A stretch of DNA of 64,000 bases from Dehalococcoidia bacterium (GCA_963662615.2 CAXXSR010000001.1:320001-384000), one strand, 5' to 3'. Numbered from the stretch's first letter, positions 16,990-59,610 are shown. A program made the numbers and translations. The notes: generated by a model not told the origin, from the letters alone.

Positions 16990-17552
16990 GGCGGCGCGGA
17001 AGTCCCTTCGTCACTGTCCATCGGTGCGGTGTCCACCGGCGCAGTGTTCACCGGCGCAGTGTCCACCGGCGCAGTGTCCACAGGCGCAGTGGGGGTTCCG
17101 TTTGAATCTAGCGAAGCGTTGGCTTCGCGGCCAGCGTTGGGTTCGCGGCGAGGGTTGGCGTCGACGGTTGATGCGGGCTTGGGCGGGCGGAAGTCGCCGG
17201 CGATCAGCATGATGGCGCGGACATCGGGCGGCTGCGTCTCTGGCGGAGGGGCGACGCGTAAGCGCCCAAAGCGGTCTCCGAGGGCGTAGGCGTCCCAGAC
17301 CCAGTAGGCGGCGGCGGTGAGGAGGGCCCCGCCGGCCGGCGCCGTGACCATGCTGACGCCGATGCCGGTCCCCGTGTCCAGGCCAAGGACGGGGACGAGC
17401 ACGCCGCCGGCGCCGCCGCCCAGCAGCGCGAAGGGGAGCGCCCAGATGGCCCCGTCCGCGCGCCGGCGCACGCTCCAGGCCAACCAGGGCAGGCCGCCCA
17501 GCACAACCCAAGCGAGGAAGAAGAGCGCGAGGAAGATCGCGTCGAAGAGCAC
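16986..17552 (-). CDS. hypothetical membrane protein with TAPVD-repeat tail
   Basis: Three hydrophobic segments; GTGA overlap with proS; five 15-bp repeats at 17015-17091. Confidence 0.6.
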   Translation of the reverse strand: MLFDAIFLALFFLAWVVLGGLPWLAWSVRRRADGAIWALPFALLGGGAGGVLVPVLGLDTGTGIGVSMVTAPAGGALLTAAAYWVWDAYALGDRFGRLRVAPPPETQPPDVRAIMLIAGDFRPPKPASTVDANPRREPNAGREANASLDSNGTPTAPVDTAPVDTAPVNTAPVDTAPMDSDEGTSAPP

Positions 17553-17665: not shown

Positions 17666-18796
17666 ATGAAACGGAACCCCACGCGGGCAGTGCGTGTGGG
17701 AGCGGTCACGATCGGCGGGGGGGCGCCGATCGCGGTGCAGTCGATGGCGGCCACCCGCACCCAGGACATCGACGCCACCGTGCGGCAGGTGCAGCTGATG
17801 CGTGAGGCCGGCGCCGATCTGGTCCGCATCGCCGTGGACTCGAAGAAGGACGTGGAAGCGCTGGCAGTGGTGCGGGAGCGCACCAGCGGGCCGCTGTCCG
17901 TTGATCTGCAGGAGAACTACCGCCTGGCGTCGCTGGTGGCGCCGTTCGTGGACAAGCTGCGCTACAACCCCGGCCATCTCCATCACCATGAAAAAGAGAA
18001 GTCCATCCAGGAGAAGGTGGCCTTCATTGCCGAGACGGCCGTGGAGCATGACTGCGCTCTGCGCGTGGGCGTCAACTGCGGGTCGGTGGACCCGCGCATG
18101 CAAGAGCGCTACGGCGACGACCACGTGCAGGCGATCGTGGCGAGCGCGCTGGAACACTGCGCCCTGCTGGACGGACTGGGCTTCGATCGCTATGTGGTCT
18201 CGCTGAAGGATTCCGACTGGCGCAAGGTGGTGGAGGCGAACCGCCGCTTCGCGGCGGAGCGGCCGGAGGTGCCCCTGCACCTGGGCGTGACGGAGGCGGG
18301 GATGCCGCCGGACGGGATCATCAAGACGCGGGTCGCGTTCGAGCAGCTCGTCACGGAGGGGATCGGCGATACGGTGCGGGTGTCGCTGACGGTGCCGTTC
18401 GAGGAGAAGGGGCTGGAGATCGAGGCGGCGCGCGCGATTCTGGCGGACATCGCGGCGGGGCGCTTCCGCTCCGTGCCGGCGTCGCTGGATGAGGGGCTGA
18501 ACATCATCGCCTGCCCGTCCTGCTCGCGCGTGGAGAACGAGGCGTTCGTGGAGCTGGCGCAGGACGTCAAGACGATGACGGCGTACGCCCAGGAGCACGA
18601 CATCACGATTGCGGTGATGGGCTGCCGCGTGAACGGCCCCGGCGAAACGGACGACGCCGATCTGGGGCTGTGGTGCGGGCCGGTCGCGGTGAACCTCAAG
18701 CACGGATCCGAGTCGCTGGGGCAGTTCCCGTATGACGAGATTCTTGACCGGCTGCGGGTGGAGCTGGACCGGCTGATCGTCGCGCGGACGGGGTAG
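17666..18796 (+). CDS. ispG: HMBPP synthase (MEP pathway)
   Basis: [57 protein letters not shown]. Confidence 0.95.
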
Positions 18797-20630
18797 AGCC
18801 CCGGTAGGCAGCGCCGCTCGTCGTTCGACTTTTTCGCCCGCGCTCGCGGTTGGTCCGTACCAGGGCAGCGTTCGTGACCGCTCGCGCCAGGGCTTGACGA
18901 TCAGGACGATGTCGGAGCCGCTTAACGCAAGGCGCTCTCGCGCTGATGGCGCGGACGATGTCGAAATAGGCCACGACGACGCCCACGATGAGCAGCAGCG
19001 CGAAGCCGGTGAGGTGGACCAGCCCCTCTCGCTCCGGTGAGATGCGCTTGCCGCGACGGGCGATCTCGATCAAGACGAAGACGATGCGGCCGCCGTCGAG
19101 CATGGGCAGCGGCAGGATGTTGAGGATCGCCAGGCTGAGGCTGAGCCACGCCGCCAGCTCGATCAGGCGGAGCCAGCCCGCTTGCTCCACCACCTCGCCC
19201 GTGGCCTGCGCCAGTCCGATAGGGCCCTGGACGCGCAGCCCCTCCCCGCCCGCGATCCAGGAGCGGATGCGGTTGCGAACCACCGTGAGGGTGTTCACCG
19301 TGCGATTCCAGCCGGTCTCCACGGCGGCGAAGAAGCCCTCCCCATGCTTCGTTGTGGCGCCGCTGCGGTTGGCAATGGAGATGCCCGTGGGGCCCTGACG
19401 AATGCTGATCTCCGTGCCGGGCGGGAGGTTCACAAGGTCGATGCCGGCGGCTTGCAGGACGGTCTGGGTTGGGAAGCCGAGGTCCCGCCCCACGCTGACC
19501 GCCGTGTCTCCCGGCTGGATGAGGTAGGATTCGCCGCCGGGCAGGGCGAGGGTCACGCCCGCGGGCAGCGCCACGCCACGGCCCAGGCCGACGGCGCTGA
19601 GCACCTGGCTGGCGGTGAGCCCGAGCGCGTCCGCTACGTCATGGACCGTCTCGCCGGGCTGGACCACGTGCTCCAGGCGCTCCGGCGCCAGCCGCGCGCG
19701 GACCGTGGTGACGAAGGTCTCCGTGACGGTCGTGCGACGCTGCGAGGCGCCTTCCTGCGCCACGTCGCGCTCCACGACGACATCGAGGTCCTCGCCCAGG
19801 TTGAGGTTGATCTGGAGGACAACATCGGGGCCGTTGCGGATCTCCTTCCCGTTGATGCTGACGAAGCGGTCGCCGGGTTGCAGCCCGCTCTGCGACGCGG
19901 GACCGCCCTGGATCACAGAGGTGATCACGGCCGGACCCGCGGAGATGGTCTGCGGGATCAGGGCGGCGATGGCGAAGAGGATGATGGGCAGGATCGCGTT
20001 GACGCCGGCGCCTGCGGCCAAGACGAGAATGCGGATCCGGCGCGGCTTGGCGGCCAGCGAGCGCGGGTCGGGCGTTACCTGGAGGCCGGCGATGCGGCCC
20101 ACGGTCGCAGCGGCGCTCTCGTCTCGCTCCGCGGGAGCGGGCGGCGACGGCGGTGCGTCGGCGTTGGGTTCGCCGACTGCAAGCAGCACGTCCTGTTCAA
20201 CGAGCTGGCTGCCGCTGGGCGCGTCCTCTGGGCGCTCAAGGGTCAGCGCAATGGTCCCCGCGGAGGCGGCGCGTCTCAGCTCCGCGGCGAGCTTCTCCTG
20301 CGAATGGACCGCTTTGTCGTTGACCTTGGTGATCACGTCGCCGGTGGCGATGCCGGCGCGGCCGGCAGCGCCCTGGGCGTTGACCTGACCCACGTACACG
20401 CGCGCGCTCTCTTCGCCGGTGAGGCGCACGAAGCCGCCCAGCGGCAGCCAGTTGATCGAATAGAGGGTCTCGCCGAAACGCTTGCCCCAGATGCGCGGGG
20501 GGAACCCCACGCCGAACTCCTCCACGCGCACGCCCGACAGTTTGGCGACGACGTAGTGGCCCAGCTCGTGCAGGACGACGAGGCCGACCAGGATGCCGAT
20601 GAAGGGAAGGACGGCTTGCAGCACGACCAT
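18696..20630 (-). CDS. rseP: RIP/M50 metalloprotease RseP with PDZ and LysM-like domains (true stop probably at 18922)
   Basis: [25 protein letters not shown]; TGATG overlap with dxr. Confidence 0.9.
18828..18905 (+). repeat. diverged copy of the 82-bp repeat
   Basis: TTTTTCGCCCGCGCTCGCGG...CCGCTCGCGCCAGGGCTTGACG. Confidence 0.55.
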
Positions 20631-21793
20631 CAGACGCGCACCAAGCAGTCGGCGGCGTAGCGCCGCGCCCAGGCGTCGGCGGCGTCGATGGTCTCCAGGT
20701 CGGGGTCGTCCACGGCCTCGTGGGCGTTCAGCGTCGCCGCAATCATGTCCGCGATCTCCGTGAAGGTGATGCGGCGGTCCAGGTACGCGGACACAGCGAC
20801 TTCGTCGGCCGCCGCCATCACGGCGGGAGCGGTGCCACCCTGGCGCCCGGCCTGCATTGCCAGCTGCAGACAAGGGTAGCGATCGAGGTCAGGGGCTTGG
20901 AAGGTCAGGGTCCCCAGCGCCGCCAGGTCCAGCGGCTCCACCGTGGGCTGGAGCCGGTCAGGGTAGGTGAGGGCGCACTGAATGGGCAGACGCATATCCG
21001 GCTTGCCCAGTTGCGCCTTGACGGAGCCATCCGACATCTCCACCAGGGAATGCACGATGGATTCGGCGTGTTGCAGGACCTCCACGCGCTCGTAGGGCAC
21101 GTCGAAGAGCCAGCGGGCCTCAATGGTTTCCATGCCCTTGTTGAGGAGGGTGGCGCAGTCGATGGTGATCTTCTTCCCCATGTTCCAGGTGGGGTGCTGG
21201 AGCGCGCGCTCCGGGGCCACGTCTGGCAGCGCCTCGAGGGGCAGGTCGCGCAGGGCGCCACCCGAGGCTGTTAAGATGATTCGACGGATCTCGTTCCGTT
21301 CCTCACCCCAAAGGCACTGCCAAATGGCGCTGTGTTCGGAATCGACGGGGCGCAGCTCGCCACCGCCGCGGTCGGCGGCGGCCCGCACCAGATGGCCCGC
21401 CATCACCACGACCTCCTTGTTGGCGAGCGCGACGGCGGTGCCGCGGTCGAGGGCGGTGAGGGTGGGTTCCAGGCCCGCCCGCCCGGCGGTCCCCACCATG
21501 AGCACATCCAGATCGTCGTCGGAGGCCATCTCCTCCATGGTCGCGATGCCGGCGCCGACTTCGGTGGCGATGGCGTGGAGGGTATCGAGGCCGTCGCCGT
21601 GGCGGCCGTCGTTGGCCCAGATGTAGCGGGGCCGGAACTCACGCGCCTGCTGGGCCAGCAGCTCCAGGTTGCGGCCAGCGGCGAGCCCCTGCACCTGGAA
21701 GTGGCCGCGCAGGGTGCGGATCACGTCCAGCGTCTGGGTCCCGATGCTGCCGGTGCTGCCTAGGAGGGTGACGCGGATCAGAGGACGAACCAT
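20630..21793 (-). CDS. dxr: 1-deoxy-D-xylulose-5-phosphate reductoisomerase
   Basis: LGSTGSIG, LANKE, PVDSEHSAI, HPTWNMGKKITID. Confidence 0.96.
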   Translation of the reverse strand: MVRPLIRVTLLGSTGSIGTQTLDVIRTLRGHFQVQGLAAGRNLELLAQQAREFRPRYIWANDGRHGDGLDTLHAIATEVGAGIATMEEMASDDDLDVLMVGTAGRAGLEPTLTALDRGTAVALANKEVVVMAGHLVRAAADRGGGELRPVDSEHSAIWQCLWGEERNEIRRIILTASGGALRDLPLEALPDVAPERALQHPTWNMGKKITIDCATLLNKGMETIEARWLFDVPYERVEVLQHAESIVHSLVEMSDGSVKAQLGKPDMRLPIQCALTYPDRLQPTVEPLDLAALGTLTFQAPDLDRYPCLQLAMQAGRQGGTAPAVMAAADEVAVSAYLDRRITFTEIADMIAATLNAHEAVDDPDLETIDAADAWARRYAADCLVRV

Positions 21794-26569: not shown

Positions 26570-26960
26570 CCGTTCGGCCCTTCGGCAGGCTGAGGGCGAA
26601 CGGGGGAGGGCCGCGTTCGCCCTTCGACCCTTCGACAAGCTCAGGACAGGCGGGCTCAGGACGAACGGCTTTTTCGACGCGCGCTCGCGGGTCATGCGGG
26701 GTCGCGCCGAGATGGTGGCGGCTCGCGCCGGCGCTTGATGAGCGGGGTGGTGGCCCGTCCGTTCGACTCTTCAGCAAGCTGAGGACGAACAGGGGGCCGC
26801 GTTCGCCCCTTCGACAGGCTCAGGACGAACGGCTTTTTCGACGCGCGCTCGCGGGTCATCCGGGGTCGCGCGGTGTTGGTGGCGGCTCGCGCCGGCGCTT
26901 GATGAGCGGGGTGGTGGTCCTTCCGTTCGACCCTTCGGCCTGTCGGCATCGTCAGGACAG
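26570..26960 (+). repeat. mosaic cluster of REP-like units and two 82-bp units
   Basis: CCCTTCGACA(A/G)GCTCAGG units alternate with TTTTCGACGCGCGCTCGCGGGTCAT..GCTCGCGCCGGCG units. Confidence 0.85.
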
Positions 26961-34821: not shown

Positions 34822-36318
34822 GGCGATCAGCGAGTGACGCCGGCTCCCTCGCCGCGGGGGGAGCGCTCGTCGGGTGCGGGGGCGTCGGGTGCGGAGGCGT
34901 CGGGTGCGGAGGCGTCGGGTGCGGAGGCGTCGGGTGCGGAGGCGTGCGAGTTGCCCTTGCAGCGCCCAGGGACCGGCCTGCGTCACGCGCACGTCCACCA
35001 AGGAGCCGATGGGGACGGCGTCGCGCGGCGCGTCGAAGTGGACCAGCTTGGCGCCGCGGGTGCGTCCGGTCAGCCGCTCCAGGCCGGCGCGATCGCCCGC
35101 CTTGCGCTCCTCCACCAGCACCTCCACGACATGGGCCTGCAGGGCCGAGTTGATCTCGTAGGCGATCCCTCGTTGCAGATCCTCAACGGCGTGGAGCCGC
35201 TGCATCTTGACCTCCTGGGGCACGTCGTCGGGCTGATTGCGCTCGGCGAAGGTGCCGGCGCGAGGGCTGTAGGCGGCGACGTGGACCTTGTCGAAGCGGA
35301 GCCGTGCCAGCAGGTCGTGGCTGCGCCGGAACTGCGCTTCACTCTCGCCGGGAAAGCCGACGATCACGTCGGTGCTGATCCCCGCCGCCGGCATCAGGCG
35401 CCGGACCCGCTGCACCCGCTCGACGAACTGCGAGACGGAGTAGCCCCGGCGCATGGCGGTGAGGATCTCGTCGTCGCCGGACTGGACCGGGAGCGAGAAG
35501 GAGTCGCACACCTTGGGCAGCGAGGCCATGCCCTCCAGGATGCGGTCCGTCATGTCGGGCGGGTAGGAGGTGAGGGCGCGGATGCGGTGGAGGCCGGGCA
35601 GGTCGTGGATGGCGGCCATGAGGTCGAAGAGATCGGCGTGGGCGGTGGCGGCGTCGACGGGGGGCTGGTCCTTGCCGTAGGCCTCCACGGTCTGGCCCAG
35701 CAGGGTGACCTCGCGGGCGCCGCGGGCGACGTGCGCCTCGACCTCGCGCTTGACCTCGTCGATGGGGCGGCTGCGCTCGCGGCCGCGCCGCAGCGGGACG
35801 ATGCAGTAGGTGCAGAACTTGTCGCAGCCTTCGATCACGGGGACGAAGGCGGTGGGTTTGGCGCCGGTGGGCTTGGCGCCGGCGGGCTCTGTTTCTGCTG
35901 ACGGTGTGTCTGCCGACTGTGTTTCTCCAGAAAGCGCCGCGGGCCAGAACTCACCGCCGAGGTCTTGGTCGGGGAGATCGAGGACGGCGATGACGTCGTC
36001 GAAGCGCTGCGGCTGCGCGAAGACGTCGACGTAGGGGAAGCGTTCTTGTAGCTGCTGGGTGCGGGGGCCGACCATGCAGCCCATGACCGCGATCTTGAGG
36101 GCGGGGTTGCGCCGCTTGAGGTAGGCCATGGCGTCCAGCTTGGCGGCGGCACGGTCCTCCGCCTGCTGACGCACGGCGCAGGTGTTGACGACGATGAAGT
36201 CGGCGTCGTCGGGGCGGTCGGTGGCGTCCCAGCCCAAGCGGCGCAGCCCGGCGGCCAGCTTGCCGCTGTCGGCCATGTTGACCTGGCAGCCCACGGTCCA
36301 AATGTGATACGTGCTCAT
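34165..36318 (-). CDS. miaB: tRNA-2-methylthio-N6-dimethylallyladenosine synthase MiaB, reading through into NrtR
   Basis: TVGCQVN, NTCAVR, GCDKFCTYC radical-SAM motif, IVGFPGE, TRAM domain ending ~34960. Confidence 0.9.
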   Translation of the reverse strand: MSTYHIWTVGCQVNMADSGKLAAGLRRLGWDATDRPDDADFIVVNTCAVRQQAEDRAAAKLDAMAYLKRRNPALKIAVMGCMVGPRTQQLQERFPYVDVFAQPQRFDDVIAVLDLPDQDLGGEFWPAALSGETQSADTPSAETEPAGAKPTGAKPTAFVPVIEGCDKFCTYCIVPLRRGRERSRPIDEVKREVEAHVARGAREVTLLGQTVEAYGKDQPPVDAATAHADLFDLMAAIHDLPGLHRIRALTSYPPDMTDRILEGMASLPKVCDSFSLPVQSGDDEILTAMRRGYSVSQFVERVQRVRRLMPAAGISTDVIVGFPGESEAQFRRSHDLLARLRFDKVHVAAYSPRAGTFAERNQPDDVPQEVKMQRLHAVEDLQRGIAYEINSALQAHVVEVLVEERKAGDRAGLERLTGRTRGAKLVHFDAPRDAVPIGSLVDVRVTQAGPWALQGQLARLRTRRLRTRRLRTRRLRTRRPRTRRALPPRRGSRRHSLIAMPRRAASRPTVAALVVIFSVVEGDLRVLLIHRSAPPDEGTWAIPGGALALDESLEGAAIRKLAEETGVTDVFLEQLYTFSDLDETSPGGSVAATYFALVSHDRVRLAQRSAWRPAWFSMSDLPVLALHNDRVLETARRRLINKLEYTNAAYSLLPEFFTLTQLQDVYASILGRHLDKRNFRRRMLASDLLVATNRTVKAGPHRPARLYRFASRTPVEL
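34868..34945. repeat. ~5 x 15-bp tandem repeat in the miaB-nrtR linker
   Basis: (GCGTCGGGTGCGGAG)n. Confidence 0.9.
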
Positions 36319-36354: not shown

Positions 36355-36458
36355 GCCCTTCGATAGGCTCCTTCTGCTGCGCGAAGGACAGGTCAGGGTG
36401 AGCGGATGACCTCACCGCCCGACCCCCTCTCCATCGCAGCGCGTTGGAGAGGGGGAGG
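36355..36458 (+). repeat. REP-like unit plus CCCCTCTCC..GGAGAGGGG palindrome
   Basis: Same motifs recur at 41650, 42290, 45633 and 55675. Confidence 0.7.
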
Positions 36459-38062: not shown

Positions 38063-39181
38063 ATGACGGTGATCCGGGCGGCGTTGTGGCGGATGGCGGT
38101 GATGGTATTGCTGCCGGCGACGGTGGCGACTGTGACGGTGGCGTCTGGGACGGTGGCGTCTGGGACGGTGGCGCCGGTGGCGGCGCAGGAGGGCGAGGGC
38201 CCGGCCGAGCTGGCGACCGATCTGGTTCCACCCTGGAATTTCGTGACGGCGACGGAGGCTGGGTCGGTCGATGAAGTTTTCACCGGGACCGTATACGTGG
38301 AGGCCGTGTTCCGGTGGGACGCGTCGCGGGAGGCGTTTGACAGCTGGCAGAAGGCGTTGCCGGCGTCGCTGAATTCGTTGCCGTCGGTGGAGCGCGGCGA
38401 CGCGCTGTGGGTACGAGTGGGCCTGGCGGAGACGTGGCGGCAGGCGGATGCGCCGGCAGCGCGCCCTGTCGATTTCGTTCAAGGCTGGAATACCTTCGGC
38501 TGGACGGGGCCGAATAGCGGCGCGAGCGAAGTGGCGTCGCTGCTGGGCGCCGACGTGGTGATCGGCTACGACGCGGCGTCGCAGGCGTTTCTGCGCTACG
38601 CGGTGGAGGGGCCGTCGTTTCTCAACAGCTTGGTGACGGTGCGTCATGGTGACGGGCTGTGGGCGTTCCTGAGCGCGCCCGGCAGCGCGACGATCCCGGC
38701 CTCGGGCGCGCCCAGCGCCAACGGCGACGTGATAGAAGAGGAGCCGGTGCCCATGGAGTTGACCAGCGCGGCCTTCGGTCCCAATGAGACGATCCCGTCG
38801 CAGTACACGTGTGACGGCGCCGATCTGTCGCCGCCGCTGACGCTGTCGGGCATTCCCGCCGACGCGGTGAGCCTGGCCCTGATCATGGACGACCCCGACG
38901 CGCCGGGCGGGACGTGGGTGCACTGGGTGGAGTTCAACATCGCGCCGCGGACGCAGATCCCAACGGGCGCGGGCGTGCTGGGGACGCAGGGGCGCAACAG
39001 CTTCGGCACGACGGGCTACGGCGGCCCGTGCCCGCCGTCGGGGACGCATCGCTATTTCTTCACGGTGTACGCCCTCTCGGCGGAGCTGGAGCTGGCCGGG
39101 GGCGCGACCAAGGCGCAGGTGCTGGCGGCGATGGAGGGGCTGGTGCTGGCGCAGGCGGAGCTGATCGGGCTCTTTCGCTAA
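38063..39181 (+). CDS. secreted YbhB/YbcL (PEBP) protein with extra N-terminal domain
   Basis: Signal peptide; DDPDAPGGTWVHW, GYGGPCPPSGTHRY. Confidence 0.88.
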   Translation: MTVIRAALWRMAVMVLLPATVATVTVASGTVASGTVAPVAAQEGEGPAELATDLVPPWNFVTATEAGSVDEVFTGTVYVEAVFRWDASREAFDSWQKALPASLNSLPSVERGDALWVRVGLAETWRQADAPAARPVDFVQGWNTFGWTGPNSGASEVASLLGADVVIGYDAASQAFLRYAVEGPSFLNSLVTVRHGDGLWAFLSAPGSATIPASGAPSANGDVIEEEPVPMELTSAAFGPNETIPSQYTCDGADLSPPLTLSGIPADAVSLALIMDDPDAPGGTWVHWVEFNIAPRTQIPTGAGVLGTQGRNSFGTTGYGGPCPPSGTHRYFFTVYALSAELELAGGATKAQVLAAMEGLVLAQAELIGLFR

Positions 39182-41734: not shown

Positions 41735-41962
41735 TTAGAGGAGGGCGCGCAGTTCCTCCGCAGTCAGGCCGGCTTGGCGGAGGATGCTTCGTAACGTGCC
41801 GGCGGGCAGGTCGCGGTTGCCGTGGACGGGCACAACGACGAGAGCGGCGGCGCCCGGCTTGCGCAGGTAGTGGTGGCTGCCGCGCACGTGTGTGAGCTCG
41901 AACCCGCCGCACTGGAGAGCGCGCACGACACGGCGCCCTCGCAGCCTGGGAAGGCGCGTTAC
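41735..41962 (-). CDS. hicA: HicA family toxin (no canonical start at the expected position)
   Basis: LPRLRGRRVVRALQCGGF..RGSHHYL..VPVHGNRDLPAGTLRSILRQAGL. Confidence 0.8.
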   Translation of the reverse strand, partial: VTRLPRLRGRRVVRALQCGGFELTHVRGSHHYLRKPGAAALVVVPVHGNRDLPAGTLRSILRQAGLTAEELRALL

Positions 41963-42192
41963 GCGATCGCGACTTCGAGGTCGACGAGTTCGGGGCCGCC
42001 GCCGGGCGGGACCGGGATGTCCTCTTTGGCGGCGGCCTCGAGGTAGCCGAGGATCGCCTCGCGCGTCTGCTCGAGCGCCTTCTCGCGGGTATCGCCGTAG
42101 GTGGAAAGATAGTTCAGGGCAGGAACAGTGGTGACCCAGACGTTGTCGTCGGCGTCGTAATCGATGAGTACCTTGAAGCGCCGGCTGGTCAT
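41959..42192 (-). CDS. hicB: HicB family antitoxin
   Basis: VPALNYLSTYGDTREKALEQTREAILGYLE; TACAAT -10 at 42225-42230. Confidence 0.85.
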   Translation of the reverse strand: MTSRRFKVLIDYDADDNVWVTTVPALNYLSTYGDTREKALEQTREAILGYLEAAAKEDIPVPPGGGPELVDLEVAIA

Positions 42193-42274
42193 GGCACACC
42201 TTCCTGGAGCGGGCGGAGTGTTTCCATTGTACGCCGTAGGTGCAGGAGTGACGTCCGTGCGGGCTGGGGCGGGG

Positions 42275-42650
42275 ACCTCACCCCCGGGCCCCCTCTCCAT
42301 CCGGAGATGGAGAGGGGGAGGCGTTCGCCCTTCGACCCTTCGACAAGCTCAGGGTGAGCGGTTTCTTGGACGCGCGCTCGAGGCGCATCCGCGACATCGC
42401 GGCGGTGGTCGTGCCGTTCGCCCCTTCGACAGGCTCAGGACGAACGGGTAGAGAACAGGCTCCTTCGGCTGCGCGAAGGACAGGTCAGGGTGAGCGGGTT
42501 GAGAACAAGCTCAGGGTGAGCGGTTTTTTCCACGCGCGCTCGCAGCTCGTCCGGGGCAGCGCGGGGTTGGGGGTGGCTCGCGCCGGGGGTTGATGAGCGG
42601 GGCGGGGGTCGTGGCGTTCGCCCCTTCGACTGGCTCAGGACGAACGGGTG
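42275..42650 (+). repeat. mosaic REP/82-bp repeat cluster
   Basis: All three repeat motifs present. Confidence 0.8.
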
Positions 42651-42652
42651 GG

Positions 42653-43543
42653 TCAGTCGATGAGGGCGCGCTCTTTGAGGGTGCGCTGCATGGTGGCGCC
42701 GATGCGGGCGGGGCTGCGGCTGATGGTGGCGCCGGCGTCGGCGAGGGCTTTGATCTTGGCGGCGGCGGTGCCGCTGGCGCCTTCGATGATGGCGCCGGCG
42801 TGGCCCATGCGGCGGCCCGGTGGGGCGGTGGCGCCGGCGACGAAGGCGACGACGGGCTTGCGCATGTGGCGCTTGATGTAGGCGGCGGAGGCCTGCTCGG
42901 CGGTGCCGCCGATCTCGCCGATGAGGACGACGGCGTCGGTGGCGCTGTCGTTGTTGAACAGCTCCAGCACCTCGACCGGGGAGGTGCCGATGAGGGGGTC
43001 GCCGCCGACGCCGACGCAGGTGGACTGGCCGATGCCGAGTCGGCTGAGCTGGTCGACGGCCTCGTAGACGAGGGTGCCGGAGCGGGAGACGACGCCGACG
43101 CGGCCGGCGCTGAAGACGTTCGTCGGCATGATGCCAACGCGGCACTTGGCGGCGGGGGTGATCAGGCCGGGGCAGTTGGGGCCGATGAGGCGGCTGCGAC
43201 CGTCGCGCAGCGCCGCCTTCACGCGCAGCATGTCCTGCACGGGCACGCCCTCGGTGATGCAGATGATCAGGGGGACGGCGGTGGCCACGCTCTCCAGGAT
43301 GGCGTCGGCGGCGCCGGGGGCGGGCACGAAGATGATGGAGCAGGTGGGCTTGCGTCGGGCGACGGCCTCCTCGGCGGTGTCGTAGACGGGGAAGCCCTCG
43401 AAGCGGGCGCCGCCGCGGAAGGAGGGGTGGACGCCGGCGACGACGTCGGTGCCGTAGGCGAGGGAGCGGCGGATGTGGTTCTGCCCCTCGGCGCCGAGGC
43501 CCTGGACCATGACGCGCGTACGTCGGCCGACGAGGATGCTCAT
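42653..43543 (-). CDS. sucD: succinyl-CoA synthetase alpha subunit
   Basis: IGPNCPG, SRSGTL, IGEIGG, RMGHAGA. Confidence 0.96.
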
Positions 43544-43639
43544 GTTTTTCCTGTCGGGCTAACCGAGATGATGTGGTCCCTGAACGTCGATGGGTTCGCA
43601 GCCGGGGCGTGCCGCAGTATTGACTTCCTAACGGCCTCC

Positions 43640-44050
43640 GGCTTTTTCGACGCGCGCTCGCGGGTCATCCGGGCTCGCGCGGCGTTGGTGGCGGCTCGCG
43701 CCGGCGGTTGATGAGCGGGGCGGTTTTTTTGACCCGCGCTCGCGGGGCATTCGGGGTCGCGCGGCGTTGGTGGCGGCTCGCGCCGGCGGTTGATGAGCGG
43801 GGCGGTTTTTTTGACCCGCGCTCGCGGGGCATTCGGGGTCGCGCGGCGTTGGTGGCGGCTCGCGCCGGCGGTTGATGAGCGGGGCGGTTTTTTTGACCCG
43901 CGCTCGCGGGGCATTCGGGGTCGCGCGGCGTTGGTGGCGGCTCGCGCCGGCGGTTGATGAGCGGGGCGGTTTTTTTGACCCGCGCTCGCGGGGCATTCGG
44001 GGTCGCGCGGCGTTGGTGGCGGCTCGCGCCGGCGCCTGATGAGCGGGGCG
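43640..44050 (+). repeat. tandem array of 5 x 82-bp units between sucC and sucD
   Basis: GAC(C/G)CGCGCTCGCGG at 43649, 43731, 43813, 43895 and 43977 (period 82). Confidence 0.95.
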
Positions 44051-44068
44051 GGGGTCCTACTGGCGGTG

Positions 44069-45340
<1,272 letters not shown>

Positions 45341-45469
45341 GGCGGCGGAGCTCCCGGGCGCAGCGGCTCGTCTTGGCGGTCGGCGCAAGCAGGCCAGGTG
45401 GACGATAGCTCCGCGCTGGGGGTGCGGCAAGAACGGTGGCGCTGGGGCGGGGATGGCAGTCGCAGGCCA

Positions 45470-46110
45470 CTTTATCGACGCGCGCTCGCGGGTCGCCGGG
45501 GGTCGCGCGGCGTTGATGGCCGCTCGCGCCGAGGGTTGATGATCTGGGCGATATTTGGAGCGTTCGTCCTTCGACCCTTCGGCAAGCTCAGGACAGGCAG
45601 GCTCAGGGCGGACGGACGACATCACCCCCCGGCCCCCTCTCCATCCTTCCGCTGGAAGGATGGAGAGGGGGAGCGATGGATATCGTCATTCGACAGGTTC
45701 CTTCTGCTGCGCGAAGGACAGGTCAGGAGGACCGGCTTTTTCCGACGCGCGCTCGCGGGTCGTCGGGGCTCGCGCGGCGTTGGTGGCCGCTCGCGCCGGC
45801 GCCTGGTGATCGGGGCGGTGGTCGTCTCGTTCGCTCTCTGCGAAGCTCGTCCGGGAAGCGCGCGCCGTATCCTGAGTGAGCAGGTTTTTCGACGCGCGCT
45901 CGAATCTCGTCCGAATGTGCACCGCGTTGGTGGCGGCTCGCGCCGAGAGTTGATGAGCTGGGAGGTGGTCCTTCCGTTCGCCCCTTCGACAAGCTCAGGA
46001 CGAACGGATGGGGCGTCCAGGGGAGGCAGGTTCAGGAGGACCCTTCGACAAGCTCAGGACGAACGGGGGATTGCCGCGTTCGCCCTTCGACAAGCTCAGG
46101 ACGAACGGAT
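45470..46110 (+). repeat. large mosaic REP/82-bp repeat cluster
   Basis: Three 82-bp-type units, at least five REP-like units and one CCCCTCTCC palindrome. Confidence 0.85.
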
Positions 46111-46159: not shown

Positions 46160-47722
46160 ATGGCTGAACTGTCATCGCGGAGGGGGCACGAGCGTTCGTC
46201 GCTGGGCGGTGGCGTGAGCCGGCGGACGTTCCTGCGTCGGGGGGTGCAGGCGACCGCGGGCGCAGCCGGGCTGGCGCTGGTGGGCTGCGGCGGCAGCGCC
46301 AACAGTGACAGCGCCAACAAAGACGAGGTCGACGCGGTGGCGCCGGTCGCTGAACCCGCGTCGGCAGCTGGGCCGGCGCCGAGGGTTGAGCCCGTGCCGA
46401 ATGTCGAGCCCGTGCCGAATGGCGAGCCGGCGCCGGCAGTCGCGCCTGGCGGTGAGCGACGCCGGCTGCTCCCCGACCGTCGTTGCGATGCCTGCACGAT
46501 TGAGGATCCCGAGTTCGAGCCGCTGCCGGGGGCGCGGGCGCGCTTCGGGATCCACGAGGGCGCGGCGTACCGCATGGAAGCGCCGCAGAATTGGAACGGG
46601 ACGTTGGTGCTGTGGGCGCACGGCTTCCCCGGCCTCAACGACGCGGGGACGGACTACAGCGACGTGCTGCGCTTCGGCGGGCAGATCGAGGGACGCGAGG
46701 AGTTGATCGCGAACGGCGTCGCCTGGGCGGCGAGCACGTATGGGGCGACGGGCTACGTGCCGGCGGTGGGCGTGGACGACCTGCTGGAGGTGAAGGATCT
46801 GTTTGCGGCGGAGTTCGGGGCGCCGGCCCGCAGCGTCTGCGCGGGCGGGTCGATGGGTGGGGCGACGGCGCAACTGATGGCGCAGGAGTTTCCCGAGGAG
46901 ATCGATGGCGCGGTGGCGCTCTGCGGGGCGCTGTCCAACGTGGAGGTGGTGGACTACATCTTCTCCTGGCACGCGCTGGCGTTGTGGTTTTTGGGGGCGC
47001 CGCCGGAGCGTACGGACGCGGCCAGCCTGATCGCGTGGGCGGGGCCGCTGGGGACGGTGGACCAGTCGGGCGAGTTGCGGCTCAGTGCCGCCGGGCGCCG
47101 GTTCGCCGCCGTGGTGCGCAGGCTGACGGGGGGCGAGCGCTGGGGCTTTGAGGCGGGACTGGCGGATCACTGGCGCACCGGCTTCGGGCTGGGCGCCGTC
47201 TACTGGCCCGCGGTCCTGGCGACGGGGCTGGCCGGCACGCCGGGGGCGGTGGTGCGCGTCGATCCGGCCGTGGTGGGGGGCGTGGACACGCGGGGGGCCG
47301 TCTACGGCGCCGAGCCGGGGGTGGGTGTGGATGCGGCGGCGCTCAACGCCGAGGTCCTGCGCTTGACCGTCGATGCGGCGGACCGACGCGATCCGGCCCT
47401 GGGCGTGGCCACGGGGCGGCTGGGTGTGCCTCTGCTGACGCTGAAGAGCACGGGCGACCTTTGGACCCCGATCTCGCTGGAGGCGTCATATCTGGCGCGG
47501 GTGCGCGCCGCCGGCGACGAGGACAATCTGGTGACGCGAGCGGTGCGCCGCGCCGGGCACTGCAACTTTTCACCGCAGGAGGTGCTGCGCGCGATCCTGG
47601 ACTTGCAGCGGTGGGTGGAGAGCGGCGAGCGCCCCGCCGGGGACGATCTCAGCGGCGACCTGCGCGCCGCGGGCGTGGCCTTTACGAACCCGTTTGACCG
47701 GGACGATCCGCTAGCGCGGTAA
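46160..47722 (+). CDS. Tat-exported lipoprotein, alpha/beta hydrolase fold
   Basis: SRRTFL twin-arginine motif, LVGC lipobox, WAHG, GGSMGG, GHC. Confidence 0.82.
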   Translation: MAELSSRRGHERSSLGGGVSRRTFLRRGVQATAGAAGLALVGCGGSANSDSANKDEVDAVAPVAEPASAAGPAPRVEPVPNVEPVPNGEPAPAVAPGGERRRLLPDRRCDACTIEDPEFEPLPGARARFGIHEGAAYRMEAPQNWNGTLVLWAHGFPGLNDAGTDYSDVLRFGGQIEGREELIANGVAWAASTYGATGYVPAVGVDDLLEVKDLFAAEFGAPARSVCAGGSMGGATAQLMAQEFPEEIDGAVALCGALSNVEVVDYIFSWHALALWFLGAPPERTDAASLIAWAGPLGTVDQSGELRLSAAGRRFAAVVRRLTGGERWGFEAGLADHWRTGFGLGAVYWPAVLATGLAGTPGAVVRVDPAVVGGVDTRGAVYGAEPGVGVDAAALNAEVLRLTVDAADRRDPALGVATGRLGVPLLTLKSTGDLWTPISLEASYLARVRAAGDEDNLVTRAVRRAGHCNFSPQEVLRAILDLQRWVESGERPAGDDLSGDLRAAGVAFTNPFDRDDPLAR

Positions 47723-49162: not shown

Positions 49163-49177
49163 GGCGGCATGGTACCG

Positions 49178-49610
49178 GTTTTTTTGACGCGCGCTCGCGG
49201 GTGATTCGGGGTCGCGCGGCGTTGGCGGCGGCTCGCGCCGGCGGTTGGATGAGCGGGGCGGTTTTTTTTGACGCGCGCTCGCGGTTTTTTTCACGCGCGC
49301 TCGCGGGTGATGCGGGGTCGCGCGGCGTTGGTGGCGGCTCGCGCCAGCGCTTGATCAGAGGGCACGGTTTTCTTGACGCGCGCTCGCGGCTTTTTTCACG
49401 CGCGCTCGCGGGTGATTCGGGGTCGCGCGGCGTTGGTGGCGGCTCGCGCCGAGGGTTGACGCTGTGGGCGATGTCGGCGCCACTCGTCCTTCGACCCTTC
49501 GACAGGCTCCTTCCTAGGACGGAAGGACTGGTCAGGACGAACGGATTGGGCGTTCAGGGAAGGCAGGCGGAGGAGGCCCCTTCGTCCTTCCCGAGGGGAA
49601 GGATCAGGGC
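49178..49610 (+). repeat. mosaic REP/82-bp repeat cluster
   Basis: Three full and two partial 82-bp units plus REP-like units. Confidence 0.85.
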
Positions 49611-52333: not shown

Positions 52334-52439
52334 AGGGCCGGGGGCAGGGCCGGGGGCAGGGCCGGGGGCAGGGCCGGGGGCAGGGCCGGGGGCAGGGCCG
52401 GGGGCAGGGCCGGGCAGGGCCGGGGGCAGGAGCGGGGGT
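52334..52439 (+). repeat. 12-bp G-rich tandem repeat (~9 units)
   Basis: (AGGGCCGGGGGC)x6, one 10-bp unit, one full unit and one degenerate unit. Confidence 0.95.
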
Positions 52440-52447
52440 AGGAGCGA

Positions 52448-53652: not shown

Positions 53653-55359
53653 CTAGCGGCGCGCGGCGGGACCGCGCAGGAGGCGGCCGGGGAGGGCGCC
53701 GGTGTGCTCGCCGTCGCGGAGGAGGACTTGTCCGTTGACGACGGTGGCGGCGATGCCGGTGGCCTTCTGACGCAGGCGGGTAGCGCCGGCGGGCAGGTCG
53801 GTGGTGACCTCCGGCATCAAGGGCGCGATGCGGTCGGGGTCGAAGATCGTGAGGTCGGCGGCCCAGCCTTCGCGGACGAGGCCGCGGTCGTGCAGGCCCC
53901 AGGCGGAGGCGGTATCAAACGTGATCAGGCGGACCGCCTCCTCCAGGGTGAAGGCCTGATTCTCACGCACCCAGTGACTCAGCAAATGGGTCTGCAAGGA
54001 GGAGTCCATGATCTGAGAGACATGGGCGCCGGAGTCGGAGAAGGTCACGACGCAGCGGGGATTCTTCATCACCGCCAGCGCCTCGTCTTGGTCCTCGTTG
54101 GCGACGGACTGGAGGAACATGGCGTCCAAGTCCTTGTCCAGGGCGAGGTCGATCATGACGTCGACGGGGTCCTGGCCGCGCTCGCGGGCGAGCTGGGCGA
54201 TGGAGGGGTGGGGTCCCTCCACGCTGTCGAAGGCGAAGATCCAGTCGTAGTCGGGCGGGCGCGCTTCGCCGCCCAGGGCGCGGCGGCCGCTGTCGCCGTC
54301 GTGGGCGGCCTGGACCAAGCGGCGGCGCGTGTCGGGGTCGCGCAGGGCGGTGCGCTGCTCGTCCAGGGGCCGGGCGCGCAGCTCGCGCCAGACGGGGAAG
54401 TGGTCGAAGGGGAGCTGCGTCTGGAAGGAGAGGACGATGTTGATGGGGCGGGTGTGGGCCTGGCCGAACATGCGCCCGCCGCGCTGCGCGGTCTCCTCCA
54501 GGAGGTCCAGCTGCGGCTGCAAGCCGCTGGGATGAGCGCGGCGGCTGAAGATGCCCCAGCTGATGGGGCGTCCAGTCTCGACGGCGAGGTCGCGGAGGCG
54601 GATGTGGTAGTCGCGCTCGGCTTCGCGATCCTCGTAGTGGCGTTCCGGGGCGATCTCGAAGATGCCGGCGTTCATCTCGCCCATGACGCCGACGAGCTGC
54701 CGCACCTCTTCCCAGTCGGCGGCGCGGCTGGGCACGGGCTGGCTGTCGGGCGTTTCGTGCGAGGGGCTGCGGGAGGTGGTGAAGCCGATGGCGCCGGCGC
54801 GGAGGGCGTCGCGGACCTCGCGGCGCATGGCGGTCAGCTCGTCCTCGGAGGCCTGTTCGGTGAGGGCGCGCTCGCCCATGGCGTAGAGGCGCAGGGCGGT
54901 GTGGCCGACGTAGGCGGCGTAGTTGATGCCCTTGGGCAGCTCTTCGACGCGGTCGAGATACTCGGGGAAGGTTTGCCAGGTCCAGTCGATGCCGGCGGCC
55001 ATGGCGGCGACGGGGATGTCCTCCACGCGCTGGAGGCTGTTCATGTAGAGTTCGCGGTCCTGGGGGTGGCAGGGGGCGAGGGTGAAGCCGCAGTTGCCCA
55101 TGACGACGCTGGTGACGCCTTGCCAGCAGGAGCAGGTGCCGAGGGGGTCCCAGGAGATCTGGGCGTCCATGTGGGTGTGGCCGTCGACGAAGCCGGGGGC
55201 GACGACGAGGCCGTCGGCGTCGATGACCTCGGCGGCGCCGTCGCGGATGCGGCCGATGGAGGCGATGCGGCCGTGCTGGATGGCGACGTCGGCGCGGTAC
55301 CGGGGCGCGCCGGAGCCGTCGATGATGGCGCCGTTGCGGATGAGGAGGTCGTAGGGCAT
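53653..55359 (-). CDS. amidohydrolase (N-acyl-D-amino-acid deacylase-like)
   Basis: YDLLIRNG, PGFVDGHTHMD, GNCGF, SDSGAH, TGALPG. Confidence 0.9.
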   Translation of the reverse strand: MPYDLLIRNGAIIDGSGAPRYRADVAIQHGRIASIGRIRDGAAEVIDADGLVVAPGFVDGHTHMDAQISWDPLGTCSCWQGVTSVVMGNCGFTLAPCHPQDRELYMNSLQRVEDIPVAAMAAGIDWTWQTFPEYLDRVEELPKGINYAAYVGHTALRLYAMGERALTEQASEDELTAMRREVRDALRAGAIGFTTSRSPSHETPDSQPVPSRAADWEEVRQLVGVMGEMNAGIFEIAPERHYEDREAERDYHIRLRDLAVETGRPISWGIFSRRAHPSGLQPQLDLLEETAQRGGRMFGQAHTRPINIVLSFQTQLPFDHFPVWRELRARPLDEQRTALRDPDTRRRLVQAAHDGDSGRRALGGEARPPDYDWIFAFDSVEGPHPSIAQLARERGQDPVDVMIDLALDKDLDAMFLQSVANEDQDEALAVMKNPRCVVTFSDSGAHVSQIMDSSLQTHLLSHWVRENQAFTLEEAVRLITFDTASAWGLHDRGLVREGWAADLTIFDPDRIAPLMPEVTTDLPAGATRLRQKATGIAATVVNGQVLLRDGEHTGALPGRLLRGPAARR

Positions 55360-55454
55360 GGGGGGCTCCTTCGCGGCAGTGGTGGGAGGCTCCGCCGCTT
55401 CCACGCTTGATTGCGGCGATCCTAGTACGGCCGGGTGGGGATGGCCAGGGCGTG

Positions 55455-55710
55455 TTTTTTGACGCGCGCTCGCAGGTCATCCGGGGTCGCGCGGCGTTTG
55501 TAGCTGCTCGCGCCGAGGGTTGCTGCGCTGGGCGATGCGGGTGTCGTTCGTCCTTCGACAAGCTCAGGACGAACGGGGCGGCCCTTCGACAGGCTCCTTC
55601 CTAGGAGAGAAGGACAGGTCAGGGTGAGCGGGAGAGACCTCACCCTCCTTCGACTAGCTCAGGACAGGCTCTGACCCCCTCTCCACCGCGGAGCGCTGGA
55701 GAGGGGGTGG
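55455..55710 (+). repeat. mosaic REP/82-bp repeat cluster
   Basis: All three repeat motifs present. Confidence 0.8.
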
Positions 55711-55820
55711 AGGGAGGAGAAGGCACTGTCACCCGCGAAGGATTGCAGCAGATCGGCAGGCATCCGTAGAACCCCGCAGGCTTCGGGCCGAGTTCGCCTT
55801 GGGGGCAGTTTCGGGTCCGT

Positions 55821-56665: not shown

Positions 56666-56728
56666 CTAACGGGGGAGGCGGGAGCCATCAACGATGGCGC
56701 CGTTGCGGATGAGGAGGTCGTAGGGCAT
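56666..56728 (-). pseudogene. 20-aa remnant duplicating the amidohydrolase N-terminus
   Basis: MPYDLLIRNGAIVDGS, nearly identical to the start of the gene at 55359. Confidence 0.8.
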
Positions 56729-56821
56729 TGGGGGCGCTCGTTGGCGGCAGCGGGGGGAGGCTCCGCCGCTCCGGTGACTGATTCCTCGCGATGCTAGTAC
56801 GGCCGGGTGGGGATGGCCAGG

Positions 56822-57135
56822 CGGCTTTTTCGACGCGCGCTCGCGGGTCATCCGGGGTCGCGCGGCGTTGGGGGCGGCTCGCGCCGAGGGTCGCTGCGCT
56901 GGGCGACTTTTTCGACGCGCGCTCGCGGGTCCCCCGGGGTCGCGCGGCGTTGGTGGCGGCTCGCGCCGGCGGTCGATGAGCGGGGCGGCTTTTTCGACGC
57001 GCGCTCGCGGGTCATCCGGGGTCGCGCGGCGTTGGTGGCGGCTCGCGCCGAGGGTTGCTGCGCCGGGCGATGTCGGCGCCCTTCGTCCTTCGACCTTTCG
57101 GCAAGCTCAGGACAGGCAAGATCAGGACGAACGGA
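56822..57135 (+). repeat. three tandem 82-bp units plus REP-like unit
   Basis: TTTTTCGACGCGCGCTCGCGGG at ~56826, 56908 and 56989. Confidence 0.88.
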
Positions 57136-59134: not shown

Positions 59135-59185
59135 CTGATCGCCTTTCGGCCGGCGGACGTGGTAATCCGCGGCAGCCACGATACA

Positions 59186-59610
59186 CGGTTTTTCGCCCGC
59201 GCTCGCGACTGGTGTCGGCCACCGCGGCGTTGGTGGCGGCTCGCGCCGGGGGTCGAGGGTCTAGGCGATGTCGGCGCGGTTCGCCCTTCGACAGGCTCAG
59301 GACGAACGGTTTTTCGCCCGCGCTCGCGGGTCATCCGGGGTCGCGCGGTGTTGGTGGCGGCTCGCGCCGGGGGTTGAGGAGTGGGGCGGTGGTCCTCCGT
59401 TCGCCCTTCGACAGGCTCCTTCGCTGCGCGAAGGACAGGTCAGGACGAACGGTTTTTCGCCCGCGCTCGCGACTGGTGTCGGCCACTGCGGTGTTGGTGG
59501 CGGCTCGCGCCGGGGGTTGAGGGTCTAGGCGATGTCGGCGCGGTTCGCCCTTCGGTCCTTCGACAGGCTCCTTCCGAGGACGGAAGGACTGGTCAGGACA
59601 GGCGGGCTCA
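59186..59610 (+). repeat. alternating 82-bp/REP-like array (3 modules)
   Basis: TTTTCGCCCGCGCTCGCG at ~59189, 59311 and 59454, each followed by CCCTTCGACAGGCTC. Confidence 0.88.

Follow-up and report, generated by a model that had tools for sequence, protein, structure and literature searches.

A five-unit 82-bp array between sucC and sucD of a Dehalococcoidia bacterium is part of an interspersed intergenic repeat family with near-perfect strand polarity

The MIRU-VNTR elements of Mycobacterium, as presented in PMC3184786, are units of 40-100 bp that occur in some 40-50 copies per genome (Supply et al. 1997, per PMC3184786), stand as direct tandem copies in operon spacers, are absent from the homologous site in relatives, and carry open frames that touch the stop and start codons of the neighbouring genes. 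REPs are described as imperfect palindromes of 21-65 bp, which within BIMEs alternate in orientation (PMC3184786, PMC2718517). Elements of the IS200/IS605 type are, in the account of PMC3971601, oriented with replication and make use of single-stranded DNA on the lagging strand. Here, we describe a repeat array between sucC and sucD in a Chloroflexota genome (2,660,996 bases in 2 contigs, 93.6% complete), based on a window of 64,000 nucleotides (contig 1, 320001-384000) and on searches of the whole genome and its relatives.

By analogy with the systems above, the repeat family to which this array belongs appears to work most like a MIRU-type minisatellite: the 82-nt unit, the 77 copies in clusters of 1-5, the direct tandem arrangement in the sucC-sucD spacer, and the absence from the homologous site in relatives all recall MIRU-VNTR elements as characterised in PMC3184786. 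ATGA overlaps stand at both flanking genes, but involve two different open frames at five units. Unlike the MIRUs of that account, the array comes from a different phylum and belongs to a family whose orientation follows strand skew and not the operon; the likeness described here is one of organisation. With REP/BIME elements the family shares an extragenic location, a GC-rich composition, and an occurrence in mosaics and tandem clusters, some of them between operon genes (PMC3184786, PMC2718517), and with the repeats of P. fluorescens SBW25 the existence of large 'repeat deserts' (PMC2718517). It departs from REP/BIME elements, as these two sources define them, in having an 82-nt unit without a stem beyond chance and in being direct throughout, and no RAYT-type Y1 transposase was found. 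Similarly, the near-perfect orientation bias relative to chromosome strand asymmetry resembles that of IS200/IS605 miniatures, but subterminal hairpins are lacking and neither a Y1 nor a TnpB gene was found in the genome (compare PMC3971601). The family is also MITE-like in being small, non-coding, multi-copy, intergenic and lineage-restricted, but has no terminal inverted repeats (compare PMC3184786). We class the family among the interspersed intergenic repeats, as a new variant specific to this lineage.

Within the window, sucD (succinyl-CoA synthetase alpha, 296 aa; 42653..43543, minus strand) was identified as an ORF with Pfam matches to CoA_binding (1.7e-19) and Ligase_CoA (1.8e-22), and represents the single full-length sucD-like match in the genome. 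The translation of sucC (succinyl-CoA synthetase beta, 423 aa; 44069..45340, minus strand) matched ATP-grasp_2 (3.8e-63) and Ligase_CoA (2.2e-21); its start was placed at the first plausible Met, at 45340, as the listed ORF to 45625 extends upstream into repeat DNA. The intervening spacer (43544-44068) measures 525 nt, which is the distance that a sequence-only reading of the window had given, and the near-perfect array of five 82-bp units that this reading placed between the genes was recovered by Tandem Repeats Finder at 43639-44051 (period 82, 5.0 copies, 97% matches, score 770). On the sucD side lies the separate AT-richer stretch that had also been pointed out, a unique part of 95 nt outside the repeat register (43544..43638, minus strand) with a GC content of 0.60-0.61 versus 0.70-0.75 in the array, and on the other side the last unique spacer bases (44059..44068, minus strand) adjoin the sucC stop. 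A Shine-Dalgarno-like AGGA precedes the sucD ATG by 6-9 nt. Separately from the spacer, SucC itself was found to carry an insertion of about 31 residues (residues about 57-87) directly after its AGGRGKG motif, which is common to 9 of 9 aligned relatives of the same family and missing from L030, a member of another family of the class; the Pfam ATP-grasp_2 match in SucC covers 233 residues over 202 model positions.

The two genes are normally adjacent, as had been proposed. A SucD search of 40 relatives yielded 29 loci from other genomes, 25 of which (24 from the same family and 1 from the same class) have sucC-sucD spacers of 13-99 nt, with an approximate start position for L016, and 4 of which show no sucC inside a 1.5-kb flank. 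Most of these spacers finish with a purine-rich motif before the sucD ATG, and none of them aligns with the spacer described here. In distant phyla, among the matches listed, both genes were present at 66 of 80 loci with a median spacer of 14 nt; the raw values are at most 100 nt in 54 of the 66 spacers and above 100 nt in the other 12. Given the 13-99 nt of the relatives, a spacer of 525 nt lies far beyond the range of this bacterial family, and the same range indicates that sucD in the family is independent of codon overlap with sucC.

Comparison of the individual units provides a record of how the array may have formed. Its plus strand carries the G-rich 'plus form' of the repeat family. 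Unit 1 (43639..43720, plus strand; nhmmer E 2.9e-21), the consensus-like and putative founder unit, bears family-consensus letters and differs from units 2-4 at 6 positions. Units 2, 3 and 4 (43721..43966, plus strand; nhmmer at genome 363721, 363803 and 363885) are identical, with 0 differences in the 82-nt register, as the sequence-only reading had remarked, and carry private substitutions that are common to units 2-5. Unit 5 (43967..44058, plus strand) shows 2 differences from units 2-4 and continues into the right-terminal extension of the family, the roughly 10 nt of which resemble the ends of single copies, e.g. 42510-42617. Copies at other loci have 74-95% identity to the query, versus 100% among units 2-4, and related boxes recur about 41 nt apart (period-41 row of Tandem Repeats Finder). 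Given a consensus-like unit 1, private substitutions common to units 2-5 and a right terminus retained in unit 5, the array probably originated from one inserted copy that was then amplified in place; the identity of units 2-4 further suggests that the expansion was recent, in agreement with what had been proposed.

The stretch is present in sequencing runs of 10 studies. In Logan contigs from 4 runs of 4 studies, the sucD flank was found to run into unit 1 (43350-43668; to 43692 in X7) and the sucC flank into unit 5 (44005-44250), with 0 differences in X1, X2 and X9 and 1-2 per contig in X7. In addition, a contig carrying a unit-to-unit junction was found in 4 independent studies, at a depth of about 1.5-2.5x that of the flanks in the 4 runs, a depth that does not translate into copy number. 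Among the contigs of these runs, none joins sucC to sucD without a repeat and none spans the whole array. The concern that the array might be an assembly expansion was consequently resolved in part: with both junctions seen in contigs of 4 studies the insertion is real in nature, but as no short-read contig spans the array the copy number of five is that of the assembly. An exact 24-nt flank pattern, used to look for strain variants, was matched 0 times among the metagenome contigs.

At the level of the genome, the array proved to be one locus among many. An nhmmer profile constructed from 22 copies in the window and run over the whole genome (cut-off E <= 1e-3) identified 77 copies at 54 loci, comprising 76 copies on contig 1, with 23 inside the window, where a repeat search also reported about 20 more copies of the unit. 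Single units occupy 40 of the loci, with clusters of two, three and four units at 8, 4 and 1 loci, respectively, and five units at sucCD only, which makes the sucCD array the largest tandem cluster of an interspersed repeat family. From this range of 1 to 5 units among the 54 loci the family has the look of a minisatellite, and VNTR-like behaviour of the array, as the sequence-only reading had suggested, is plausible. Single copies of the repeat measure about 85-95 nt, compared with 82 nt for the array unit; the sequence is not palindromic, and one of its strands is G-rich.

Further members of the family in the window, all on the plus strand, range from isolated copies to short arrays. Nearest to the sucCD locus are two copies, one of them partial, that lie with hairpin-repeat modules downstream of sucD (42358..42605; nhmmer at genome 362358 and 362520), and, on the upstream side of sucC, three copies within the divergent spacer that leads to a gene at 46160 (45467..45967; nhmmer at 365467, 365737 and 365880). 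Three-unit groups were identified at 49175..49474, with periods of about 105 nt (Tandem Repeats Finder, nhmmer), at 56821..57073, where an 82-nt array separates a methyltransferase from an amidohydrolase gene (Tandem Repeats Finder period 82, 3.1 copies, 87%), and at 59184..59535, where copies spaced 121 and 143 nt apart are interleaved with hairpin modules (repeat search, nhmmer). Next to rpsB, two copies stand 164 nt apart with a hairpin module in front of each (26664..26916; nhmmer), and single copies are located at 18828..18912 (nhmmer, genome 338828) and 55451..55537 (nhmmer, genome 375451). The neighbouring genes in the window are unrelated, and include ispG, an M50 protease, rpsB, hicA and a SnoaL-like gene, as well as amidohydrolases, a methyltransferase, a GNAT gene and an aminotransferase. 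Based on crude ORF/GC3 gene calls, four classes of arrangement relative to flanking genes account for 21, 14, 11 and 8 loci, and copies also occur antisense to genes and between divergent genes. A reading of the array as specific to sucCD, which had been entertained from the sequence, finds no support in a unit that occurs 77 times, beside unrelated genes and in every flanking-gene arrangement; being one locus of a genome-wide family, the array is not to be taken for a regulator of sucCD ahead of transcript data.

Interspersed among the copies of the family are at least three further kinds of short repeat module, including a hairpin module, 'hp', with a 10-bp stem that often stands directly before the T-run of the unit. 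An alignment of 52 copies of the family contains 13 invariant columns, most of which belong to a pair of short blocks rich in GC (GCGCTCG and part of GCTCGCGCC), and many of the columns flanking these blocks are at least 90% conserved. A third repeat family consists of near-perfect palindromes built from a CCCCCTCTCCATC arm and its complement (42259-42330, 45620-45680, 36411-36455 and 55675-55719); located beside the other modules, these palindromes look like REP- or terminator-type hairpins. Also identified were two neighbouring minus-strand genes whose starts and upstream flanks (55298-55366 and 56667-56735) are 87% identical. A family copy comes after each of them, the left flanks of the two copies being similar, which suggests that segmental duplication may have spread some copies along with the start of a gene. 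An ORF at 41735-42199 (minus strand) has a HicA toxin domain within its final 58 residues, whereas the long extension at its N-terminus is probably translated repeat DNA and not protein. An RseP-like M50 protease (18696-20873, minus strand) has two PDZ domains and also gives a LysM match at residues 402-445 (E 1.2e-6, 28.8 bits versus a cut-off of 20.9). Short tandem repeats of 12 nt (x9.2; 52334-52442) and 15 nt (x5.2, x5.1 and x3.7; 34868-34945, 17015-17091 and 38119-38173) were also observed; their periods are multiples of three, and they are possibly coding low-complexity sequence.

The distribution of the unit is narrow. BLAST of two units returned 26 matches in their own genome and, in 64 other genomes of the bacterial family, only matches of 24-44 nt in 5 genomes (E about 1e-4 to 9e-4). 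A gapped pattern of the conserved core had 0 exact matches in a collection of species-representative genomes and 0 in the metagenome contig collection, and a narrow full-text literature search returned no description of intergenic repeats in this lineage. The repeat family therefore appears to be young and lineage-specific, in a comparison in which its genus is represented by a single genome. The hp module, in contrast, was detected in 7 of the 64 other genomes, corresponding to 5 of 10 genera when the present one is counted, and is older than the 82-nt family. It occurs in relatives G078, G079 and G009, with up to 36 matches in G078, where its orientation is uniform in 12 of 13 multi-hit contigs and mixed in C18. 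With hp orientation mostly uniform per contig in another genus, that of G078, the polarity rule described below may predate the 82-nt family.

On contig 1, all 39 copies of the family between 338 and 474 kb are in plus orientation and all 37 between 1007 and 1905 kb in minus orientation. This orientation matches the sign of local GC skew, calculated over the surrounding 20 kb with repeats masked, at 54 of 54 loci, and that of hp does so at 63 of 66 loci; the former agreement argues that the family is not randomly scattered junk. Repeat polarity is independent of gene direction. Since GC skew has the same sign in plus-strand genes, in minus-strand genes and in spacers, it is a property of the strand and not of transcription, from which we infer that it reflects replication. 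Genome-wide the skew is patchy, with blocks of |0.1-0.19| alternating with blocks near 0, and the window falls inside a block of positive skew (320-480 kb). Median |skew| at family copies is 0.136, compared with 0.053 for the genome as a whole. GC is lower in unskewed blocks, as is GC3 (0.79-0.83 versus 0.85-0.87), and these blocks contain 0 of the 77 family copies and few or no hp copies; the strongly skewed blocks at 580-800 kb and 820-900 kb are likewise free of family copies. This patchwork may be the result of recent rearrangements, of DNA acquired from elsewhere or of a mosaic assembly. As an inversion flips skew and repeat together, blocks may agree by inheritance, and only about 5 skew blocks are independent for the 82-nt family. 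Nevertheless, a uniform orientation across some two dozen loci within one block, where genes lie on either strand, still calls for a process that preserves orientation.

Searches for an enzyme that could account for such a process gave no candidate. The Y1 transposase family (PF01797) had 0 matches in this 93.6%-complete genome while control genomes were matched, and neither TnpB nor IS110 transposases were found in the genome; a search for IS91 matched 0 control genomes and carries no weight on the presence or absence of IS91. The only strong DnaA-domain match lies on contig 2 (653 kb), at about 407.7-408.2 kb, and not on the 2.0-Mb contig. Given this location, the two contigs probably belong to a single chromosome; alternatively, the replicon is unusually organised.

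Structural features of the unit were assessed both as RNA and as DNA. Apart from a tRNA, Rfam gave 0 matches in the window at the gathering threshold, and 0 matches in 43500-44100 at E <= 1. RNA folding of the spacer was no better than that of dinucleotide shuffles on either strand (z +1.56 and +1.94), and single units and copies folded as DNA ranged from z -1.58 to +1.17 relative to shuffles, with no hairpin beyond chance. For the 52 aligned copies, neither the percentage of paired positions nor the covariation of proposed stems was above shuffles. These results do not uphold the sequence-only suggestion that the array acts as an mRNA processing or stability element. Two alternative stem registers and a second hairpin, each evaluated as a candidate structured RNA on the 52 copies, were rejected since none exceeded shuffles, and compensatory changes that had been noticed by eye in the units were not upheld by counts. 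RNAalifold returned invariant GC pairs only, and the centroid fold places a small A-loop hairpin at every unit junction. No terminal inverted repeats were detected, with units in 0 of the 20 inverted pairs reported, and the two ends of the unit are dissimilar in the 52-copy alignment, the left being a T-run and the right G-rich. CGG is common to both borders of the element; microhomology or the target alike could explain it. With regard to the sequence-only suggestion that the array might instead uncouple the operon, 0 sigma-70-like promoters and 0 terminator-like sites were found in the region 43300-44300. Elsewhere, a 5-bp stem precedes the T-run of the unit in just 2 copies, and terminator-like sites number 6 in total, below the shuffle mean of 10.6. 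An octamer in the conserved core resembles the enterobacterial/Haemophilus Chi motif. A Chi-like reading was set aside, as the degenerate octamer outside the repeats occurs 780 times on the G-rich strand versus 202 times on the C-rich strand, and this 79% bias matches the expectation for six G when the skew is about 0.11.

The minus strand of the spacer contains two overlapping open frames. One, of 135 codons (43665..44072, minus strand), begins with an ATG that overlaps the sucC stop (ATGA), and the other, of 124 codons (43540..43914, minus strand), ends in a stop that overlaps the sucD ATG (ATGA); the frame of the latter is stop-free across the entire spacer. At five units the two ATGA sites belong to two different open frames, with no single bridging frame. 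Pfam assigned no family to either ORF or to any of the three minus-strand frames, and the 135-codon frame had 0 homologues among 272 candidate proteins of 74-237 aa, the size range to which the protein search was limited. Both frames are probably not genes. With a period of 82, which is not a multiple of 3, no Pfam family and no protein homologue, the array appears to be non-coding.

Based on the observed anatomy of the array, its family membership, its lack of structural and coding signals and its restriction to one lineage, we favour, with a probability of roughly two in three (about 0.68), a reading of the array as non-coding repeat DNA of a lineage-specific family that was amplified in place and is tolerated, and not as a device of sucCD. 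Under this reading, one copy of the repeat would have inserted about 10-17 nt beyond the stop of sucC, within the native spacer between the two genes, and a variant unit would then have been amplified in place to five through replication slippage or unequal recombination between units. We infer the insertion solely from the absence of the repeat in relatives, as neither an enzyme that could mobilise it nor terminal inverted repeats nor a target duplication came to light. The operon would tolerate the array, which is probably carried as a 525-nt untranslated, C-rich and weakly structured part of a presumed sucCD co-transcript. Tolerance had been suggested from the sequence, and is consistent with the position of the array between sucC and the one sucD identified in this genome; it is also in keeping with a sucD that in this bacterial family never overlaps sucC and has its own ribosome-binding motif. 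We take the array to be neutral as an assumption. As for the spread of the family, the strict strand polarity points to an orientation-specific and probably replication-linked process.

This polarity is also what would commend a non-autonomous element of IS200/IS605 character, moved via single-stranded DNA at the replication fork and only later amplified at sucCD. The shared GC-skew sign of 54/54 family loci and 63/66 hp loci, the replication-type asymmetry seen alike in genes of both orientations and in spacers, and the predominance of one orientation per contig for hp in G078 (1 of 13 mixed, C18) would all fit such an element, as would the replication orientation that PMC3971601 reports for IS200-type elements through lagging-strand single-stranded DNA. 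We nevertheless regard this origin as unlikely, given a 93.6%-complete genome without Y1 (PF01797), TnpB or IS110, a unit that forms no hairpin beyond chance as DNA or RNA and shows no covariation for a stem, and inversions that move skew and element together, leaving about 5 independent blocks. A different alternative places the function in the transcript, with the array as an mRNA spacer whose copy number sets the SucD:SucC ratio, either through Rho-dependent polarity on an untranslated, C-rich tract or through hairpins that shield the sucC message upstream, in the manner of REPs in some operons. The mRNA-sense spacer comprises 43% C, 28% G and 7% U, with C exceeding G in 408 of 447 78-nt windows, its folding stability is low, and Rho is encoded by the genome. 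Untranslated, C-rich and weakly structured tracts are of the kind that Rho loads on. Such a tract could impose polarity on the single sucD, a costly effect in the absence of compensation, and the cell would either tolerate such polarity or compensate for it. The small A-loop hairpin recurring at unit junctions and the identity of units, which implies a unit number that can change quickly, would also agree with an mRNA spacer, but the occurrence of the unit in all gene arrangements, including antisense and between divergent genes, and the lack of a structure signal or terminator-like site render this quite improbable.

Conservation of primary sequence in the absence of structure raises a further alternative, in that the invariant blocks across diverged copies could be bound by a protein. 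In this case a DNA-binding protein would recognise the units and act on the chromosome in a direction-dependent manner, for instance in fork pausing, segregation or nucleoid organisation, and tandem arrays would be sites of high occupancy. The 13 invariant columns in 52 copies, the related boxes about 41 nt apart, the strict polarity, and the two opposed orientation groups on contig 1 (338-474 kb and 1007-1905 kb) are compatible with such sites. We consider a role of this kind highly improbable, however, as the 77 copies are restricted to about a third of the genome, which is odd for a chromosome-wide signal, no copies lie in the skewed blocks at 580-800 kb and 820-900 kb, 64 of 64 sister genomes searched lack the family, which speaks against a core function, and the Chi-like core octamer is no more strand-skewed than base composition predicts. 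Least credible to us is that the five units are an assembly expansion, or that the spacer encodes a small protein coupling translation of sucC and sucD, as proposed for mycobacterial MIRUs. While the want of a spanning contig leaves room for the former, and the ATGA overlaps at the sucC stop and sucD start for the latter, both flank junctions and the unit-to-unit junction recur in contigs of 4 independent studies, a genome in 2 contigs may suggest long reads, and at 5 units no single frame links the two overlaps, nor was a Pfam family or, among proteins of 74-237 aa, a homologue found. Finally, the element could be strand-polar, spreading or being retained in one orientation without a hairpin or transposase, with the unit number at sucCD serving as a switch, which we think very unlikely. 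By arithmetic on the stops per frame, 3 or 6 units would give a stop-free frame from the sucC-stop ATGA to the sucD-start ATGA and thereby full translational coupling. Five units would leave an untranslated C-rich tract open to Rho, such that slippage by one unit would reset the SucC:SucD ratio; we mention this as a curiosity.

Taken together, our preferred reading of the array as tolerated, lineage-specific repeat DNA provides an example, from an uncultured lineage, of a MIRU/BIME-like minisatellite inside a central-metabolism gene pair, and the array could be used as a strain-typing marker in metagenomes. The patchwork of skewed, repeat-rich and unskewed, repeat-free blocks could help to reconstruct recent rearrangements or acquisitions in the genome. 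Two unrelated repeat modules following a near-perfect strand rule, with no transposase found, bear on how repeats spread and on replication polarity, and the wider interest of these results lies in this polarity rule rather than in sucCD.
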